Source: a virus. From it: a stretch of DNA of 16,020 bases. This document shows positions 3,955 through 15,606 of the stretch, in pieces. The DNA lies in the UHGV virus genome UHGV-0044882; one strand, given 5' to 3'. Position numbers and translations under genes: made by a program. Positions within the stretch are counted from its first letter, which is position 1, and every line of letters begins with the position of its first letter. The notes under the pieces were generated by a model. That model ran no database searches. It was not told the DNA's origin and worked only from the letters and a program-made list of their open reading frames with translations.

Positions 3955-4620
3955 TTAAAGATCCGGATCTACAGGCTCATGATATAGATTTACAGGGTAA
4001 TGAATAACTTCATAATTCAGTTGAGTAACTGTGTGAACATGCTGGCTATAAAAAACCAATGGATTTTTTTGACAAGGAGTAATCGTTATAGATTTACAGG
4101 CATGAATTCTTGGTGCGAATTTATCTAAATGCGCCTTCCAGTTGCTCATCATTTCATTACATTTTCTATTACGAGTATAGATAATCAATCCACCACTTGC
4201 GCTGTCTACGGTCCCTGTACTATATCGTTCAGTGAGTTGAGCATACCCTTTAAATAAATAACTATATGAAGATGTATGTTTTTTGGCTTCGCCATGCCAA
4301 ATATAATCCTTTAGTTTTATTGTAATATCACAATGTCCGCGCTGATTATTTTCATGAAATGCTTCAATGCCCATATCTTTATTTTTGATATTGGCCAATA
4401 AAATTAAAGTAAGCTGATCTTCTGTTAAATCGAAGTTTAACTTATTTGAATTCTCTTCTATTTCCTTTACAGCAGAATCAAGTTCAATCCTGACAAATTG
4501 TTTGAAATTATCGTACGATTGAAGTGCAAATCTAACACGAGTAATAGAAGCATTAATACGCTGAAGAAAAATATCATTATCAATATCAGCCAAACTCATT
4601 GCTGCAGACATTTTTAACAT
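3955..4620 (-). CDS. Hypothetical protein, third gene of the AT-rich operon; weak PD-(D/E)xK-like nuclease motif
   Basis: 221 aa, ATG 4620..4618 overlapping the stop of the upstream gene (ATGA), stop TAA 3957..3955. Segment GHCDITIKLKDYIWHGEAKKH has a D then E-x-K spacing compatible with a PD-(D/E)xK core; this is inference by eye, not a domain hit. Confidence 0.6.
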   Translation of the reverse strand: MLKMSAAMSLADIDNDIFLQRINASITRVRFALQSYDNFKQFVRIELDSAVKEIEENSNKLNFDLTEDQLTLILLANIKNKDMGIEAFHENNQRGHCDITIKLKDYIWHGEAKKHTSSYSYLFKGYAQLTERYSTGTVDSASGGLIIYTRNRKCNEMMSNWKAHLDKFAPRIHACKSITITPCQKNPLVFYSQHVHTVTQLNYEVIHYPVNLYHEPVDPDL

Positions 4621-5054
4621 CAGATAATATCCTTTGATTTAGATTCATCTAATGTAAAAAAAGGAAATACGAATGACTTATAGTCATACATAAGCTCCCC
4701 TGTAAATGGGTTTGCTAAAGATTGACTGATTTCCGCCTCAATAACTTCCTCTATTTCAAGTTCTACAGGGTCATGAAAATCATCAATGAACCAATAATTG
4801 AGTTTTAAAAAATCAACCTTTGGGCTACAAAGAATTTGTATGGCCGGATAGATAACCTGCTCATACGTTTCTGGCTGTAAAACCTTATTATAACCACCAG
4901 CTATATTAAATAAATCCTTATAACTTAAGGCTATATTTGATGATTTTTTAGCCCTTGCCTCGATTTCATCGTACAAATAGCAAGCTAACGCCCCAATTTC
5001 AGGGCGTTCTGCACACATTTCTTTGATGATCTTGGGCATATCACCATCCTTCAT
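4620..5054 (-). CDS. Hypothetical small acidic protein, middle gene of the AT-rich operon
   Basis: 144 aa from ATG 5054..5052 (track lists a TTG start at 5066). GGAG 7 nt upstream. Stop TGA overlaps the start of the downstream gene at 4620. No recognisable motif. Confidence 0.55.
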   Translation of the reverse strand: MKDGDMPKIIKEMCAERPEIGALACYLYDEIEARAKKSSNIALSYKDLFNIAGGYNKVLQPETYEQVIYPAIQILCSPKVDFLKLNYWFIDDFHDPVELEIEEVIEAEISQSLANPFTGELMYDYKSFVFPFFTLDESKSKDII

Positions 5055-5066
5055 TGCTGACTCCAA

Positions 5067-6173
5067 TTATAATATCAGCTTTGTGAGGGTTTCGAAATCA
5101 TCTTTGGATATACATTTACTTAATATAGCATAGTTAACAGGAGAGCAACTACTCCCTCCTAGATGCCTGCGGAGTGTTCCCGGAATGATAAGCTCTACGT
5201 TATCCGCTAATTGCAGTTTTGGATTATTTCTATCAACTCTAATTCCAATACGATACAAACCAATACTGCCTACTGCTTTGATGCCTTCCTTATTAAACAA
5301 ATCATCACGTAAGTCTTTAGTGGCCACATTTTTCTTTTCTTTATGCGTAGTCCCCTCATTCGTCAAAAATGACAAATCAAAGACTTTATAGCTTAATTTT
5401 GAATAAGGCAATGAATTTTGTTTGAAAATTAGCTCAATTAACGGATAAAAATCTTTTTCCGATGATTTAAATTCATAACCGACATGATTATACAATTCAC
5501 GAATAATGTTACTCTTTGCAAAAGTAACATTATCACCAATAATATTACCATTAGTATCTACCAAAACATGAATTTTATTAGTAACAGAGTCTAATATACA
5601 GACATCAAAACATTGTCGCTTTTCTTTTCGCTTTGCAATAATTTCATCAAACTGCTTGTATTGCGCAAGTGCTGACGGGGGAATTTTTTCTCTTACAACT
5701 AATTCTCTGACAGATGAAAAAACAAGTATTGACTGGGTGTTTTGAATAGAATAATTAACAAGTTCAGGTTGATTTTTTACAGCATTTTGCAATTGGACAT
5801 CATCAAGGATCGAATCAACCAATAATGATGGTTGATTCATCAAATTCCATTGAAAACTAAATCTGTCATTTAGTGTTTTAATTACACTATTATCTACAGT
5901 CAAACTAAATATTGCTTTTTCACCATAAACGACCTGACCAAAAATTAGGTCATTTACGTTTGCCATAATGCCATCAAACTTTTGCCTATCTTTACTTTTA
6001 AGATCAATGAGGCTTTCTAGTATTTTTTCGTTTGTTGCTTCACGCCCCCTACCTGTTGGCAGCCCTAAAGACGCAATAATTGGCCTTGCAACGTTCCATG
6101 TGAAACGTTCAGTTAAGGTCAAGATCGACTTTAACTCAGACTCAGAAAGCACTACTGGGACACTACCTGTCAT
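5067..6173 (-). CDS. Hypothetical protein, first and largest gene of the AT-rich operon
   Basis: 368 aa from ATG 6173..6171 (track lists GTG at 6182), AGGTG 7 nt upstream, stop TAA 5069..5067. No Walker A, HExxH or nucleotidyltransferase motif found by eye. Confidence 0.62.
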   Translation of the reverse strand: MTGSVPVVLSESELKSILTLTERFTWNVARPIIASLGLPTGRGREATNEKILESLIDLKSKDRQKFDGIMANVNDLIFGQVVYGEKAIFSLTVDNSVIKTLNDRFSFQWNLMNQPSLLVDSILDDVQLQNAVKNQPELVNYSIQNTQSILVFSSVRELVVREKIPPSALAQYKQFDEIIAKRKEKRQCFDVCILDSVTNKIHVLVDTNGNIIGDNVTFAKSNIIRELYNHVGYEFKSSEKDFYPLIELIFKQNSLPYSKLSYKVFDLSFLTNEGTTHKEKKNVATKDLRDDLFNKEGIKAVGSIGLYRIGIRVDRNNPKLQLADNVELIIPGTLRRHLGGSSCSPVNYAILSKCISKDDFETLTKLIL

Positions 6174-6322
6174 AACTTGCACCTAGTCATCCAAAAAGCA
6201 ATAAGAATTTGCTCTTGTCTTAATTTATCCTTCGATACCTAACAAATTACCTCAATGTTGAAAAAATTTGCAAGCCATTTGCTTCTAAAAAGCGACCTTA
6301 CTCAGAGTGTTACAAAACTAAG

Positions 6323-6351
6323 CGAGCGCGCGCTCGTATCCCCGCCACGCC
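6323..6351 (-). other. Candidate cos (cohesive end) site with adjacent GC palindrome
   Basis: Reverse complement of 6333..6351 is GGCGTGGCGGGGATACGAG. Its first 13 nt match the 186 cohesive end as I recall it (GGCGTGGCGGGGAAAGCAT); 14 of 19 match P2 (GGCGAGGCGGGGAAAGCAC). The G-rich strand is the one expected downstream of Q. A 14-bp palindrome cgagcgcgcgctcg sits at 6323..6336. Confidence 0.45.
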
Positions 6352-6372
6352 TGCCCGCTTTGTGTAGTGGTT

Positions 6373-6476
6373 TTCATGCAGGTGCATGACATAAGCAAAA
6401 GCCCGCCAGAACTGGCGGGCCTGCATCAAAACGATCCTCAAACGATCATGCGTTCTCATGCAGCATAGTCATGCAC
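6373..6476. repeat. Cluster of short iterated motifs beside the cos-like site
   Basis: TCATGCA(G/C) at 6374..6381, 6456..6463 and 6469..6476, plus an inverted copy at 6383..6390 forming a dyad with the first. AAACGATC direct repeat at 6429..6436 and 6440..6447. Confidence 0.4.
6396..6420 (-). terminator. Rho-independent terminator, minus strand
   Basis: Stem gcccgccag / ctggcgggc (6401..6420). On the minus strand it is followed by TTTTGCTTAT. Confidence 0.45.
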
Positions 6477-6637
6477 GGATGAGAGAAATGAATGCGCGTA
6501 TCCAAATGCCCGTTAGAAAAACGCAGATGAACTAAAAAAGCTTAAGGTCTACTATGAGCGAGAAACGGACATTTAATTTTCGAGTAGTGGAAATCGAAGC
6601 CAGTACCTGCCGGAGCCATAGTATCGAAACCACGAAC

Positions 6638-6664
6638 AATAAAAAGCCTGGAAATATCCAGGCT
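6638..6664 (-). terminator. Rho-independent terminator after the oxidoreductase gene
   Basis: Stem agcctgg / ccaggct with loop aaatat (6645..6664). On the minus strand it is followed by TTTTTAT, 36 nt after the stop at 6700. Confidence 0.6.
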
Positions 6665-6699
6665 GCGCAAGACTCATTTATAGAATGCTGCGGTAAGGA

Positions 6700-7692
6700 T
6701 TACTCAACGGTCACAACTATTTTGCCGACCTGTCCATTGGACTCCATATAGCGCTGGGCGTCTGCAATCTCTTCGAACGGGAACGTCTTATCGATGACCG
6801 GCTTCAGTTTGCCGACTCGCAAGCCTTCTGTGATAAAGGATTTAGCGCGCGCCATTTTTTCAGAGTCCGTCGTGATTTCAAACAGCTCATATCCACGCAG
6901 GGTGAGATGCTTACCGAGAATATCAAATACAGGCACAAGCATGTCACGGCTATCGAGCGCGCCGTACTGGAAAAACATACCCTGTGGTGCCATCACCTGC
7001 GTCAGTTTTGCCACGTCCGGCCCACCGACGGGATCAAAAACAATATGGGCACCTGCGCCATCTGTTGCACGACTGATTTCAGCAACCATATCCTGCTCCG
7101 CAGTAGCAATGACGGCGGCTGCGCCAGCTTTAAGGAGCATTTCGCTTTTTTCAGAGGTCCGTGTGAGTGCAATTGGGTTTGCACCCAGCATGTTAGCAAT
7201 CTGTATGGCAGCCAGACCCACGCTGCTTGATGCTGCGCGGATCACGACATTCTGACCAGCCTGAAGGTTGCCATACTCAACCAGCGCACCATAAGCGGTG
7301 ACATACATCATCCAGCTTGCGGCGGCTTCCTCGAATGAAAGGTTTTCAGGATGCTTTACGACAGCATGAACCGGTGCGTTGACCACTTCACCATACATGC
7401 CGTATTCATTAAACATAAATGAAGGGATCACGCTTACCCGATCTCCAGTGGTAAACTCATCTACATTCTCACCTACTGCCTGTACAACGCCGGCCGCTTC
7501 ATAACCAAGACGTGCCGGAAATTCCGGCTCAATAACATATTGGCCGTTGCGGTACATGATTTCTGCACGGTTGATACCTATCGCATGTACGCGGATCTGC
7601 ACTTCACCCGCTGTCGGTGCAGGCACCTGCACATCAACAACTTCCAGCACTTCCGGGCCACCGGTGCGGTTAAAGGTAATAACTTTAGACAT
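6700..7692 (-). CDS. MDR-superfamily NAD(P)H:quinone oxidoreductase-like (zinc-type alcohol dehydrogenase family)
   Basis: 330 aa from ATG 7692 (track TTG at 7698). N-terminus MSKVITFNRTGGPEVLEVVDV and a Gly-rich nucleotide-binding stretch AASSSVGLAAIQ resemble E. coli Qor-type quinone reductases. Confidence 0.85.
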   Translation of the reverse strand: MSKVITFNRTGGPEVLEVVDVQVPAPTAGEVQIRVHAIGINRAEIMYRNGQYVIEPEFPARLGYEAAGVVQAVGENVDEFTTGDRVSVIPSFMFNEYGMYGEVVNAPVHAVVKHPENLSFEEAAASWMMYVTAYGALVEYGNLQAGQNVVIRAASSSVGLAAIQIANMLGANPIALTRTSEKSEMLLKAGAAAVIATAEQDMVAEISRATDGAGAHIVFDPVGGPDVAKLTQVMAPQGMFFQYGALDSRDMLVPVFDILGKHLTLRGYELFEITTDSEKMARAKSFITEGLRVGKLKPVIDKTFPFEEIADAQRYMESNGQVGKIVVTVE

Positions 7693-7841
7693 ATTCAACT
7701 CTCTTCAGTTAAAGGCACACCTTCAGAATAATGCCGAAGGGATGCCCGAATCATTTGTGAACAATCTACGTTGTTACGAACACACCAGAAATAGCTGAGA
7801 GGGAACTTCAGTATTAATTATCCATTAACAATCCGCCTGCT

Positions 7842-8744
7842 TCAGCGGATCTGCGTGGCCAGAATATCACTGAACCAGTCGATAAAGACGCGCACTTTTG
7901 GAGAAAGGTAGCGCCTGTCGGGATACATCACTGACACGGGCTTTGACACCGATGGGTATTGCGGCAGAATCTCTTCAAGAGCGCCGGAAGCAATATGGGG
8001 AGCAACGGCATCATAGGTAGCCTGGATAATGCCCAGACCAGCCAGAGCACAAGAAAGCAGAATATCGGAATTATCAACCAGCAGGCTGCCCGCAGGACGT
8101 AGCGAAACAATGCTCCCGTCTTCGATAAACTTCCATTCCATGACGTCACGACTGTGGTCGCTAAAAAAGTTAATTGCCCGATGTTTATCCAGATCCGCAA
8201 GTGTTTCTGGCCGCTCATGCTGCTGCAGGTAAGACGGGGCTGCACAGGTAACCATCCGGATGTCACCAAGACGTCTGGATATAAAACTAGAATCTTGAAG
8301 CGCCCCCAGGCGGACAAGGCAATCTACGCCTTCCGTAATCAAATCAGTTTTTTTATCGGAAGAAACCAGCACAACTTCAATACCTGGATACAGTGCCTGA
8401 AAATGCCTGAGATTAGGGATCAATATGGAATGCGCCAGCGCCAGGGGCACATCAAGTCTCAGGCGTCCTCGCGGTGGAAGTGTCGGTGAAAAACTGGCCA
8501 TCATGTCATTAACTTCGGCCAGAACATGCCTAGCATGATGATAGAACTCATCCCCTTCAGCAGTAACGCTCAGCTTTCGGGTTGTGCGATAAATGAGTTT
8601 TACACCCAGATCATGCTCTATCTGCTGTATCGCTTTGCTCACAGTGGGGCGATGAATCTGAAGTACATCAGCAGCTTTCGTGAAGCTACCCTGCTCAACA
8701 ACCTGTATGAAAATATTTAGGTATTCAATCATGTTGGCATGCAC
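7842..8744 (-). CDS. LysR-family transcriptional regulator (LTTR)
   Basis: About 300 aa. N-terminal HTH signature VVEQGSFTKAADVL..PTVSKAIQQIEHDLGVKLIYRTTRKLSVTAEG followed by a co-inducer domain. Start is GTG 8744 (AGGTGA 5 nt upstream) or ATG 8732. Confidence 0.85.
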   Translation of the reverse strand: MHANMIEYLNIFIQVVEQGSFTKAADVLQIHRPTVSKAIQQIEHDLGVKLIYRTTRKLSVTAEGDEFYHHARHVLAEVNDMMASFSPTLPPRGRLRLDVPLALAHSILIPNLRHFQALYPGIEVVLVSSDKKTDLITEGVDCLVRLGALQDSSFISRRLGDIRMVTCAAPSYLQQHERPETLADLDKHRAINFFSDHSRDVMEWKFIEDGSIVSLRPAGSLLVDNSDILLSCALAGLGIIQATYDAVAPHIASGALEEILPQYPSVSKPVSVMYPDRRYLSPKVRVFIDWFSDILATQIR

Positions 8745-8966: not shown

Positions 8967-9200
8967 TCAGTGTAACCAGCTGTCGTCTTCCCAGACCTGC
9001 TGCAGAATTTCCATTACACGTTCCTTATCTTCAGCCTGTCTTACCCCGCTAAGTTCAATACCATTGGCGCTGCCCTTGCGGATTCGGATAGCTGTTTTTG
9101 GGTAGAGGGGGCGCAAATTTCGGTAAAGCTCGGATTCAAGTGCTTCTAAAAGCACCTGGCTAATTTTCTGCTCTTTATCGATCATTATTTCAATGCGCAT
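8967..9200 (-). CDS. DinI-family protein
   Basis: 77 aa from ATG 9200 (MRIEIMIDK..). Aligns by eye with E. coli DinI along its length, including the C-terminal EILQQVWEDDSW versus DinI EILQETWESADDW. SD AGGGGA upstream. The track ORF extends to 9245, but the internal ATG fits the family. Confidence 0.8.
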   Translation of the reverse strand: MRIEIMIDKEQKISQVLLEALESELYRNLRPLYPKTAIRIRKGSANGIELSGVRQAEDKERVMEILQQVWEDDSWLH

Positions 9201-9210
9201 AGATTTTCCC

Positions 9211-9399
9211 CTAACAGGTAACGTCCATTGTTCGGCTGTATTCATGGTTGCGGATTTTCGCCATCAGCTCGTCAGTCAGCTCGGAAACCCACTGGATGGC
9301 CAGCCCCTTCTCTTCATCACTACACTCACTAGCCGCTACAAGCTTAAGAAAAAAATCAATGCGCTGGAGCTTCAAAGACTCCAAAAAATAGTCCTGCAT
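9211..9399 (-). CDS. Small SOS-regulated protein; possible Tum-like antirepressor N-terminal module
   Basis: 62 aa, ATG 9399..9397 with strong SD AGGAGG 5 nt upstream. Lies directly downstream of a LexA operator; stop TAG is 10 nt before the DinI-like ATG. Function inferred from position only. Confidence 0.5.
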   Translation of the reverse strand: MQDYFLESLKLQRIDFFLKLVAASECSDEEKGLAIQWVSELTDELMAKIRNHEYSRTMDVTC

Positions 9400-9425
9400 C
9401 TTTCCTCCTATGACACCAAAACAAT

Positions 9426-9459
9426 ACTGTATATATAATCACTGTTTATATTTACAGTA
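9426..9459. promoter_or_regulatory. LexA operator (SOS box): one perfect box plus an overlapping imperfect box
   Basis: 9442..9457 ctgtttatatttacag is a perfect CTGT-N8-ACAG. 9426..9445 tactgtatatataatcactg matches the left half of the consensus, with the right half CAC instead of CAG. Confidence 0.7.
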
Positions 9460-14113: not shown

Positions 14114-14623
14114 TCACAGCAAACCGAATGAAGCACCAAGACCAGTCATGGTATCAACTGCACTCGCCATCGCAGGATTAGCCTGTAAACGGGCCTGTAA
14201 TGAAACAGCAGCCAGCGCCATCAGTCGTGTAACAGAGTTAATGCTGCTGATCGCATCACGACGGCCTGCACTGGTTTTTACATCGCCAGAAACCGCACCT
14301 GCCGCGACACGTCCTATCTCTGCAGTTGCACTCATGACGTAATGCGGCAGTTTCTCTTTTGCTACCTCATTAATCGGTACACATGGCAGGCAGTGAATCT
14401 GTGCCAGAAAACCATCTACCAGCGTTGAATCTTCAGTCAGATCGGTAAGCAACCAAATTTCTGGTGCGGTTAATAAATGAGGTTGAGCTGGGTTCAGTTT
14501 GTTCCGCAGAATCTGCACATTCATGCCTGCACGTTCTGCCAGTTGCACCAGATTGTGGCGCAGTGCGAATGCACGACAGGCTTCATCAAAATGTGGATGT
14601 TTGGAAACTTGGTAATCAAACAT
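14114..14623 (-). CDS. CII-like lysogeny-establishment activator (186 CII family); alternatively a P2 B-like early protein
   Basis: 169 aa from ATG 14623 (track TTG at 14632), GGAG upstream. Second gene of the early rightward-type operon, directly after the Apl/Cox-like gene, as cII is in 186; length equals the 186 CII length as I recall it. Confidence 0.6.
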
Positions 14624-14687
14624 GGTTTTCAACTCCGAACTTATCGCAAAATCGAACTCAGCGTCTTATTGCGAAAATAGACGTCTA

Positions 14688-14891
14688 TTAAGCAGACAAA
14701 GCATCAACAGTCAGAGCAGCCAGGTTAATCATTACCTTTTCACGTTTTTTGTCTTTACGAAGACGATGACGAGGTAGTCGGCCATCAGCCAACATGTCGT
14801 TAATCGTATCAATAGAAAGGCCAGTCAGTTCGCTATAACGTTCGATTGTGACATGTGGTGTATTCAGAGTAATTGAAATGTTAGGTGTCAT
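14688..14891 (-). CDS. Apl/Cox-like excisionase and transcriptional regulator
   Basis: 67 aa with an HTH-like segment [24 protein letters not shown] resembling the P2 Cox DNA-binding region. First gene of the early operon, divergent in position from the repressor gene. Confidence 0.65.
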
Positions 14892-14974
14892 AAGGCAACA
14901 TTCCTTCTAGATATGGCTTGTGGCGAGCCGTTGTTTGTCGTGATTAGTAGTGAAGGCTCCAAAAGAACACTTCT

Positions 14975-15009
14975 GGTTCAACTTTAAGATCGCTTTTGGA
15001 ATCTGTCAA
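14975..15009 (-). promoter_or_regulatory. Candidate early lytic promoter (pR/Pe equivalent)
   Basis: Minus strand: -35 TTGACA (15009..15004), 17-nt spacer, -10 TAAAGT (14986..14981). Sits 28 bp upstream of the cI start and points toward apl, as in the 186 face-to-face switch. Confidence 0.4.
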
Positions 15010-15036
15010 CGAATTTTGGATTTCTTTGGAGGACTT

Positions 15037-15606
15037 GTGGATTTCAATAGCGGCGGTAAGAAAGCCATAGAACGTTTAGTTGAAGCATATGGGTTCGGTA
15101 CCCGTCAGGCTCTCTGTGATCATTTAGGTGTTTCTAAGAGCACCATGGCAACGCGCTATATGCGTGATATTTTTCCAGCAGATTGGGTAATCCAGTGCGC
15201 CCTTGAAACGGGCACCTCGCTTAATTGGCTAACAACAGGGCATGGTTCAAAGCAAGCATCAGCAAATACAAATACTATGGAAGTTGCTAAATATGTATTA
15301 TCTGATGGGGCCTTGTGTGAAGACGGTTTTTATATTTTCGATAGGGAATTTCTACCGTCGGCATTCAAGAATATTTTTGCAATCACAGATAATAATTCTG
15401 AATTTATTTGTGATAAGGAATTTGATGATATACGTGATGGTAAATGGGTAATAAGTATTGATGGCGAAATAACGATCCGTGACATTACTCGTTTACCCGG
15501 TGGAAGAATCTTCGTCGAGGGTGGAAACAGAGCCTTCGAATGCAAGATAGAAGACATTGAAATAATTGGTAAAATTATAAGTTTAACAGTCAAGTATGTT
15601 AAATAG
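15037..15606 (+). CDS. cI: CI-type immunity repressor (186 CI family)
   Basis: 189 aa from GTG 15037 with GGAGGA 4 nt upstream (the longest ORF starts at GTG 14950). N-terminal HTH region [23 protein letters not shown] and a C-terminal oligomerisation-type domain. Length is close to 186 CI (192 aa). Confidence 0.72.

Follow-up and report, generated by a model that had tools for sequence, protein, structure and literature searches.

A heteroimmune 186-type lysis-lysogeny switch with probable face-to-face promoters in a common Escherichia coli prophage

Judged from its sequence, the region 14870..15040 of the virus genome UHGV-0044882 is very likely the lysis-lysogeny switch of a 186-like prophage with face-to-face promoters, of which the weak one is formed by TTGAAA at 14873 and CAACAT at 14896. 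The switch is a heteroimmune member of the well-known 186-type kind. An immunity switch of the 186 type with face-to-face promoters had been proposed in the initial annotation of this DNA, and this proposal was right in kind, as indicated by the gene families, the quality and conservation of the promoter-like sites and their register to phage 186.

The stretch of DNA that was analysed, here called the window, has a length of 16,020 nucleotides and contains the early region of a 186-like (P2-family) prophage of E. coli, including cII, an apl-like gene and cI, with int starting at the window end. The DNA around the switch is found as a prophage in many E. coli chromosomes. A query of 1051 nt matches four genomes with 100% identity and 91 records with 95% identity or more, and 82 records from a collection of 5426 complete E. 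coli genomes contain the 401-nt switch region with 99% identity or more. E. coli 89-3156 and 2012C-4502 are among the carriers of the prophage. In the RefSeq annotation of an identical copy, the minus strand encodes, from right to left, a 67-aa hypothetical protein, a CII-family protein, Fil, a DUF5347 protein, a DUF2732 protein, a DksA-like protein, Dam and a replication endonuclease. The plus strand of this copy encodes a "phage repressor protein CI" (15037..15606), a small ORF and an integrase from 16003. In addition, cargo ORFs are present at 3955..6182, for which PADLOC and Pfam scans gave zero matches. The apl-like gene and cI had been described as divergent genes that are 145 bp apart, and this is confirmed, with the apl ATG at 14891 and the GTG of cI at 15037. 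The features of the switch and its adjoining genes are as follows:

14114..14623, minus strand: cII, the activator for establishing lysogeny (Pfam Phage_CP76, 3.4e-42)
14688..14891, minus strand: apl-like gene, the first of the lytic operon, at the place of 186 apl and P2 cox, encoding a helix-turn-helix protein of 67 aa
14873..14901, plus strand: likely lysogenic promoter, equivalent to 186 pL, with -35 TTGAAA (14873..14878), 17 nt and -10 CAACAT (14896..14901), assigned by its register to 186 pL
14885..14913, plus strand: the candidate of the initial annotation, GTGTCA (14885..14890), 17 nt and TAGATA (14908..14913), probably not a promoter
14981..15009, minus strand: lytic promoter, equivalent to 186 pR, with -35 TTGACA (15009..15004), a 17-nt spacer and -10 TAAAGT (14986..14981), assigned by its sigma-70 score and conservation
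15028..15032, plus strand: ribosome-binding site of cI, GGAGG
15037..15606, plus strand: cI, the immunity repressor of 189 aa with a GTG start, assigned by its Pfam domains and its similarity to 186 CI

The products of these genes connect the switch to phage 186. Both domains of 186 CI, the N-terminal helix-turn-helix domain and the C-terminal oligomerisation domain, are recognized in the repressor (Pfam Phage_CI_repr, 2.3e-31, and Phage_CI_C, 1.4e-26). The protein is 33% identical to 186 CI over 175 aa, and its closest solved structures are the 186 CI entries 2FJR and 2FKD. CII is 70% identical to 186 CII over 169 aa. The apl-like protein gives weak Pfam matches to HTH_17 and Phage_Cox, both under the curated cut-offs, and is 40% identical to 186 Apl over 20 N-terminal residues. 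The order of the lytic operon is that of the 186 type: it is divergent from cI, and a small gene in the Apl/Cox position comes first, followed by cII of the CP76 family.

Relatives of the switch were gathered by a search with CI, resulting in 9 loci from one-genome-per-species contigs and 80 loci from viral contigs, and were supplemented with four annotated phages. Klebsiella phage 4LV2017 (L093) was left out because it has no apl-like ORF in the expected range. In the loci L005-L009 and L011, the promoter DNA and the N-terminal domain of CI are those of the window, combined with unrelated C-terminal domains. Conversely, the L026 group has the C-terminal domain of the window and a nearly identical apl, but its CI N-terminus is different and its lytic-promoter region is unrelated. 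L010, vB_EcoM-813R9, Salmonella phage RE-2010 and Klebsiella phage ST13-OXA48phi12.1 are more distant relatives. Natural chimeras of this type, in which the same CI N-terminal domain and operator DNA are combined with another C-terminus, or the reverse, could help to define operator specificity.

The relatives also bear on the start of cI, which had most plausibly been placed at GTG 15037 with a Shine-Dalgarno sequence. This start is supported by the RefSeq annotation of identical DNA, by the start-codon column and by the conserved GGAG: the column reads GTG, TTG or ATG in relatives and lies 4 nt past GGAG. Counted from GTG 15037, the Pfam domain of CI begins at residue 10. The start of the longest ORF, at 14950, was rejected, as the resulting extension would overlap with the lytic promoter and is without an equivalent in the L026 group, where the spacer is different.

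In a scan of both strands with a simple sigma-70 weight matrix, which was built from textbook base frequencies and is not a curated model, the lytic promoter, TTGACA-17-TAAAGT, scores 15.4 bits, the top score of both strands in the whole 16-kb window. It agrees with the consensus at 10 out of 12 positions. The good sigma-70 match that had been noted on the minus strand, pointing toward apl, is therefore borne out and lies far above chance. The promoter is kept in every switch type with 12-15 bits. In relatives, the -35 element reads TTGACA, TTGACG or TTAACA, and the -10 element reads TAAAGT, TATGTT, TAGTAT, TAATAT or TAATGT. Transcription is predicted to start at about 14972-14974, giving apl a leader of about 82 nt.

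For the opposite direction, the best plus-strand site in 14800..15100 is TTGAAA-17-CAACAT with 9.4 bits. Scores of at least 9.4 bits occur once per about 1300 nt per strand in the 16-kb window, and a chance match at one fixed register is therefore unlikely. Such a register is given by the 186 record, in which pL reads TTGCGA-17-CATGAT in the orientation of the window. The -35 element of 186 pL starts 16 nt before, and its -10 element 7 nt after, the C of the complement of the apl start codon. In the window, TTGAAA and CAACAT are located at exactly these positions, -16 and +7. The same register is observed in L005, L006, L007, L010, L011, L026, vB_EcoM-813R9 and Salmonella phage RE-2010, and it also holds in Klebsiella phage ST13-OXA48phi12.1 if an upstream ATG is taken as the apl start.

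Conservation within the two hexamers points in the same direction. In 11 switch types, which are mutually related and are not independent samples, positions 1-3 and 6 of the -35 element are invariant (TTG..A), as are positions 1, 2, 5 and 6 of the -10 element (CA..AT), of which positions 3-4 agree in seven of the 11. The codons between the two elements are variable in the same 11 types. The pattern CA..AT is what would be expected of a -10 element, in which the A at position 2 and the T at position 6 matter most. The element CAACAT itself matches three of the six -10 consensus positions and has no TG extension. Within the -35 element, the third codon bases of Ser6 and Ile5 lie at 14874 and 14877, respectively. 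Both are fixed in the nine types that encode Ile-Ser-Ile, where the third positions of neighbouring codons vary. TTGAAA at 14873 and CAACAT at 14896 most likely form a weak lysogenic promoter, located 12 bp upstream of the site proposed earlier. From this promoter, transcription would start at about 14907-14909, and the predicted leader of cI is about 130 nt long. A terminator-like hairpin at 14913..14931, just past the predicted lysogenic start, was considered and rejected; one of its stem pairs is broken in L011, and its T-run is gone in 813R9. Neither of the leader RNAs folds better than shuffled sequences (z-scores of +1.1 and -0.1).

Other arrangements of the promoters have to be weighed against this reading. 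A lambda-like, back-to-back arrangement, in which the cI promoter lies to the right of the lytic promoter and diverges from it, would fit the divergent orientation of the apl-like and cI genes themselves. However, the 27 bp that separate the lytic -35 (15009) from the cI start (15037) are too few for a promoter and a leader, a weight-matrix scan found no plus-strand site above 3 bits between these positions, and the strong promoter adjoins cI and not apl, which is the opposite of lambda. This arrangement has next to no chance of being correct. With only 27 bp available, a cI promoter within the spacer has to be oriented against the lytic promoter. It would be positioned on the left side of the latter and read through it, so that every choice of a plus-strand site gives a convergent arrangement. 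This leaves the choice of the site, for which GTGTCA at 14885 and TAGATA at 14908 had been suggested as a weaker candidate, with starts about 55 bp apart; transcription from this site would begin near 14920. Both hexamers exist as described, with an ideal spacer of 17 nt, the aligned -10 in L006 is the -10-like TAAGTT, and a separation of about 55 bp fits the 40-60 bp quoted for P2-like phages (PMC7498355). The strings are present, but their role as a promoter did not hold up. The score of 2.97 bits is at chance level, as such a value occurs once in about 29 nt on each strand of the window, and TAGATA has no T at the last -10 position. In relatives, GTGTCA changes to GGGTCA, GGGGCA or GTCTCA and TAGATA to TCAGTG, TTAGTT or TTTAAT, the hexamers being conserved only where they overlap with the apl start codon. 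TAGATA is also polymorphic among close copies, since it reads TAGGTA in L013 and L065, in which the 413 nt around the switch are otherwise identical to those of the window. In addition, the site is shifted by 12 bp relative to the register of the pL annotated in 186. That this site is the lysogenic promoter is very improbable.

It could also be argued that the spacer has no constitutive promoter at all and that cI is transcribed from further left, either from the CII-dependent promoter at 14597..14652 or from TAGAAA 14813 / TAACGT 14836 inside apl. In this case, the conserved TTGAAA and CAACAT would reflect only the coding and translation signals of Apl. TTGAAA falls within codons 5-7 of apl and CAACAT between its ribosome-binding site and the ATG, and because the -35 lies in coding DNA and the -10 in the translation-initiation region of apl, their conservation could partly reflect protein and translation signals. 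The site at 14813 scores 7.4 bits, and a similar site is found in the same place in L026. On the other hand, a stable lysogen requires expression of cI without CII, and the homologous hexamers are the annotated pL in 186. Moreover, the CA..AT pattern resembles a -10 element and not a ribosome-binding spacer, and the codon third positions in the -35 are frozen where neighbouring ones vary. A spacer without its own cI promoter is considered very unlikely.

With the lysogenic promoter at TTGAAA 14873 / CAACAT 14896, the earlier claim of convergent starts about 55 bp apart stands for the predicted convergence, which follows from the 27-bp geometry, but not for the separation, which is predicted to be about 65 bp (starts at about 14908 and 14973). 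These starts were predicted from the spacing in the 186 annotation or from the usual 7 nt between the -10 element and the start. In the 186 GenBank record, which contains the Adelaide group's annotations of promoters and binding sites, the -35 of pR is at 23026 and its -10 at 23049, and the apl ATG is at 23141. The opposite strand carries pL, whose -10 element is located at 23131..23136 and whose -35 element is located at 23154..23159. The two promoter features end at 23063 and 23125, which are 62 bp apart.

Two further control elements known from 186 have likely counterparts in the window, one upstream of the lysogenic promoter and one past gene A on the minus strand:

14597..14652, plus strand: CII-dependent establishment promoter, equivalent to 186 pE, assigned by its CII half-sites
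8967..9457, minus strand: probable SOS operon for prophage induction, assigned by a LexA box and a DinI-like ORF
9211..9399, minus strand: ORF of 62 aa
8967..9200, minus strand: DinI-like ORF (Pfam DinI)

The CII half-sites ATGTTTG (14597..14603) and CAAACAT (14617..14623) have the sequence and the 13-nt gap of the annotated 186 CII site. At 22-23 nt downstream, the -10-like CAAAAT (14647..14652) is found, which is conserved as CAAAAT, CAGAAT or CATAAT; we infer a pE start in the window. In the probable SOS operon, the LexA box CTGTTTATATTTACAG at 9442..9457 is an exact match to CTGT-N8-ACAG. The C-terminal half of 186 Tum and the DinI-like ORF share 40% identity, and no similarity was found between the 62-aa ORF and Tum, including its N-terminal half.

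The way in which these elements would work together can be derived from studies on 186 and its relatives. In 186, the weaker pL is suppressed through transcriptional interference by the strong pR that faces it, and CI relieves this suppression (PMC3675496). 186 CI binds three operators over pR and, aided by distal sites about 300 bp away on either side, represses pR and not pL (PMC3675496, PMC7498355). 186 Apl binds direct repeats between the promoters (PMC3675496, PMC7498355). It has been described that face-to-face promoters are general in P2-like phages, with the repressor operators over the lytic promoter and the Apl/Cox sites either in the interval that separates the starts or on top of the lysogenic promoter (PMC7498355).

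By analogy, we infer that the same interference logic applies here, including the transcript starts, the interference and the places where CI and Apl would bind, on the basis of the difference between 15.4 and 9.4 bits, the conserved CII half-sites and the LexA box with its DinI-like ORF. From the strong lytic promoter (15009..14981), transcription would run leftward through the leader and reach the apl-like gene, followed by cII, fil and the replication genes. From the weak lysogenic promoter, which lies over the start of the apl-like gene, it would run rightward, passing directly over the lytic promoter before it reaches cI and int. As in 186, the strong promoter may suppress the weak one by transcriptional interference, and CI bound over the lytic promoter would shut it off and thereby free its own promoter. 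The Apl-like protein, again as in 186, may bind between the promoters and dampen lysogenic transcription. CII would activate the upstream establishment promoter at 14597..14652, and the LexA-controlled operon (9457..8967) would supply the inducer.

For the binding sites of CI and Apl, the following candidates were obtained:

14959..15043, no strand assigned: candidate CI operator zone over the lytic promoter, based on repeats with a spacing like that of the 186 pR operators
14676..14689, no strand assigned: palindrome AATAGACGTCTATT, perfect over 14 bp, at the apl stop codon, in the position of the distal CI site FR of 186

In the operator zone, three TT(T/G)TGGA(A/T)T repeats, TTTTGGAAT, TTTTGGATT and TTGTGGATT, are present at 14994, 15014 and 15035. 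Their distance of 20-21 bp matches the three pR operators of 186, which are two turns apart (PMC3675496). An inverted copy of the repeat, TCCAAAAG, is located at 14959..14966. The spacer of the lytic promoter (14987..15003, 17 nt) shows no variation among seven relatives with the same CI N-terminal domain. The 17-bp palindromes of 186 (e.g., ATTCAC-N5-GTGAAT) are absent over the lytic promoter of the window. For the ogr/B promoter, the other end of a prophage with an identical switch region was used (NZ_CP101233, L096), where one GTGAAT half-site is found upstream of ogr/B. In a search for a motif shared by the lytic-promoter region and the ogr/B promoter, words were no commoner than in shuffled sequences. 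Palindromic half-sites with spacers of 2-8 nt did not rise above background at the lytic promoter, at the FR and FL positions or at the ogr/B promoter. A second copy of AATAGACGTCTATT is absent from the window, and relatives whose CI N-terminal domain is that of the window have not kept the palindrome. Direct-repeat Apl sites of a 186-type switch would be expected with a spacing of 10-11 bp between the promoters, and a second time at att. Between the promoters, loose GT.GTG(A/G) repeats are present at 14917-14953. The string GTGGCG also occurs in the att-proximal DNA and resembles the consensus of the Int arm-type sites in the 186 record.

A further-reaching suggestion is that CI would bind the three direct TT(T/G)TGGA(A/T)T repeats instead of 17-bp palindromes, and that the 62-aa ORF would be a stand-alone antirepressor, not of the Tum type and separate from the DinI-like domain. 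We regard this combination as unlikely. If true, the repressor would be a variant of the 186 "wheel" repressor with a new mode of DNA recognition, and the antirepressor would be new as well.

The 186 face-to-face design, with a weak promoter over the apl start codon, appears to be kept in heteroimmune relatives from Escherichia, Klebsiella, Salmonella and other enterobacteria. The corrected promoter coordinates are useful for reporters or the engineering of a common E. coli prophage, and are of little importance beyond annotation.

Compared to known switches, the window shares with lambda PR/PRM the divergent genes for the repressor and the lytic regulator, the bistable switch and a CII-dependent establishment promoter beyond the first lytic gene. 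In lambda, however, the promoters are back-to-back with shared operators (PMC7498355), whereas those of the window must be face-to-face. The CI and Cro families of lambda are also unrelated to the proteins of the window.

The C repressor of P2 is a small protein from another family that binds direct repeats, and we know of no cII, establishment promoter or SOS induction in P2. The window is not of the P2 type, as its repressor belongs to the 186 CI family (189 aa) and cII and a LexA box are present. The likeness to P2 lies in Pe/Pc, the early and repressor promoters, which are face-to-face, and in the first lytic gene, which encodes a small helix-turn-helix protein that is an excisionase as well in P2 (PMC7498355).

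Phage 186 (Eganvirus) is the closest of the three. The gene order int-cI / apl-cII-fil is common to both, and the early region of 186 broadly matches the order Fil, DUF5347, DUF2732, DksA-like and gene A on the lytic strand of the window, although no DUF5347 gene is among the listed features of the 186 record. Unlike 186, the window carries a small secreted-looking ORF between cI and int. Apl has 87 aa in 186, and the apl-like protein is 20 aa shorter (67 aa) and barely similar. Where 186 has a single Tum, two separate ORFs are found in the window, the first of which is unrelated to Tum. The hexamers also differ, with TTTACT/TATATT for pR and TTGCGA/CATGAT for pL in 186, compared to TTGACA/TAAAGT and TTGAAA/CAACAT in the window, and the distance from the lytic -35 to the cI start is 15 bp in 186 and 28 bp in the window. 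Against these differences, the annotated pR of 186 occupies the same place as the lytic promoter of the window, adjoining cI. The position of the p95-tum operon, past gene A, corresponds to that of the LexA box and the DinI-like gene. The starts are 62 bp apart in 186 and are predicted to be about 65 bp apart in the window, and the leaders of 78 and 114 nt in 186 compare with predicted leaders of about 82 and 130 nt, respectively.

The switch proves to be a mosaic when window 14870..15250 is compared with the related loci L005-L011 and the L026 group. In one set of relatives, the N-terminal domain of CI and the DNA of the promoters are those of the window, but the CI C-terminal domains are unrelated. 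Another set carries the window's C-terminal domain and apl; its CI N-terminus differs, and its lytic-promoter region is unrelated. One breakpoint of the mosaic is located immediately rightward of the hexamer CAACAT. Between both promoters, the word GTGGCG is found within the hairpin-like GGCTTGTGGCGAGCC (14917..14929). The same word is observed in locus L001 (5970..6035), where two direct copies, 11 bp apart, and one inverted copy are located in the DNA separating int from the host junction. GTGGCG is similar to the Int arm-type consensus stated in the 186 record.

The 3' end of cI is AT-rich and contains a sigma-70-like site, TTAACA-17-TATAAT (15574..15602, minus strand), which scores 14.9 bits and ranks second among such sites in the whole window. 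The site is directed antisense into cI, and the minus strand downstream of it is without a gene. This site may be spurious or may be the source of an antisense transcript.

Multiple other features are present in the window:

3955..8744, minus strand: cargo, from the portal gene to the SOS operon
8967..9457, minus strand: region with a perfect LexA box, CTGTTTATATTTACAG (9442..9457), upstream of two ORFs
9211..9399, minus strand: 62-aa ORF, downstream of the LexA box
8967..9200, minus strand: DinI-like ORF
14676..14689: perfect 14-bp palindrome AATAGACGTCTATT, across the apl stop codon
15623..15814, plus strand: small ORF in the cI-int interval, part of the lysogenic transcript

The cargo comprises ORFs of 221, 148 and 371 aa, for which Pfam and PADLOC gave no matches, followed by a gene resembling those of zinc-dependent alcohol dehydrogenases and by one for a LysR-type regulator. 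The prophage in record NZ_CP101233, whose switch is identical to that of the window, carries other cargo at this position. The product of the small ORF has a signal-peptide-like N-terminus and several cysteines, and is annotated as a YdcA family protein in some genomes; 186 lacks a gene between cI and int.

The palindrome, which is present as a single copy in the window, is placed where 186 has its distal CI site FR, and the related loci L006 and L007 carry AAACGTTT, also a palindrome, at the equivalent position. No similarity was found between the 62-aa ORF and the N-terminal half of Tum, the SOS-operon antirepressor of 186, and this ORF may encode a different antirepressor. In 186, both functions are fused in Tum, whereas in the window the 62-aa ORF and the DinI-like ORF are separate.
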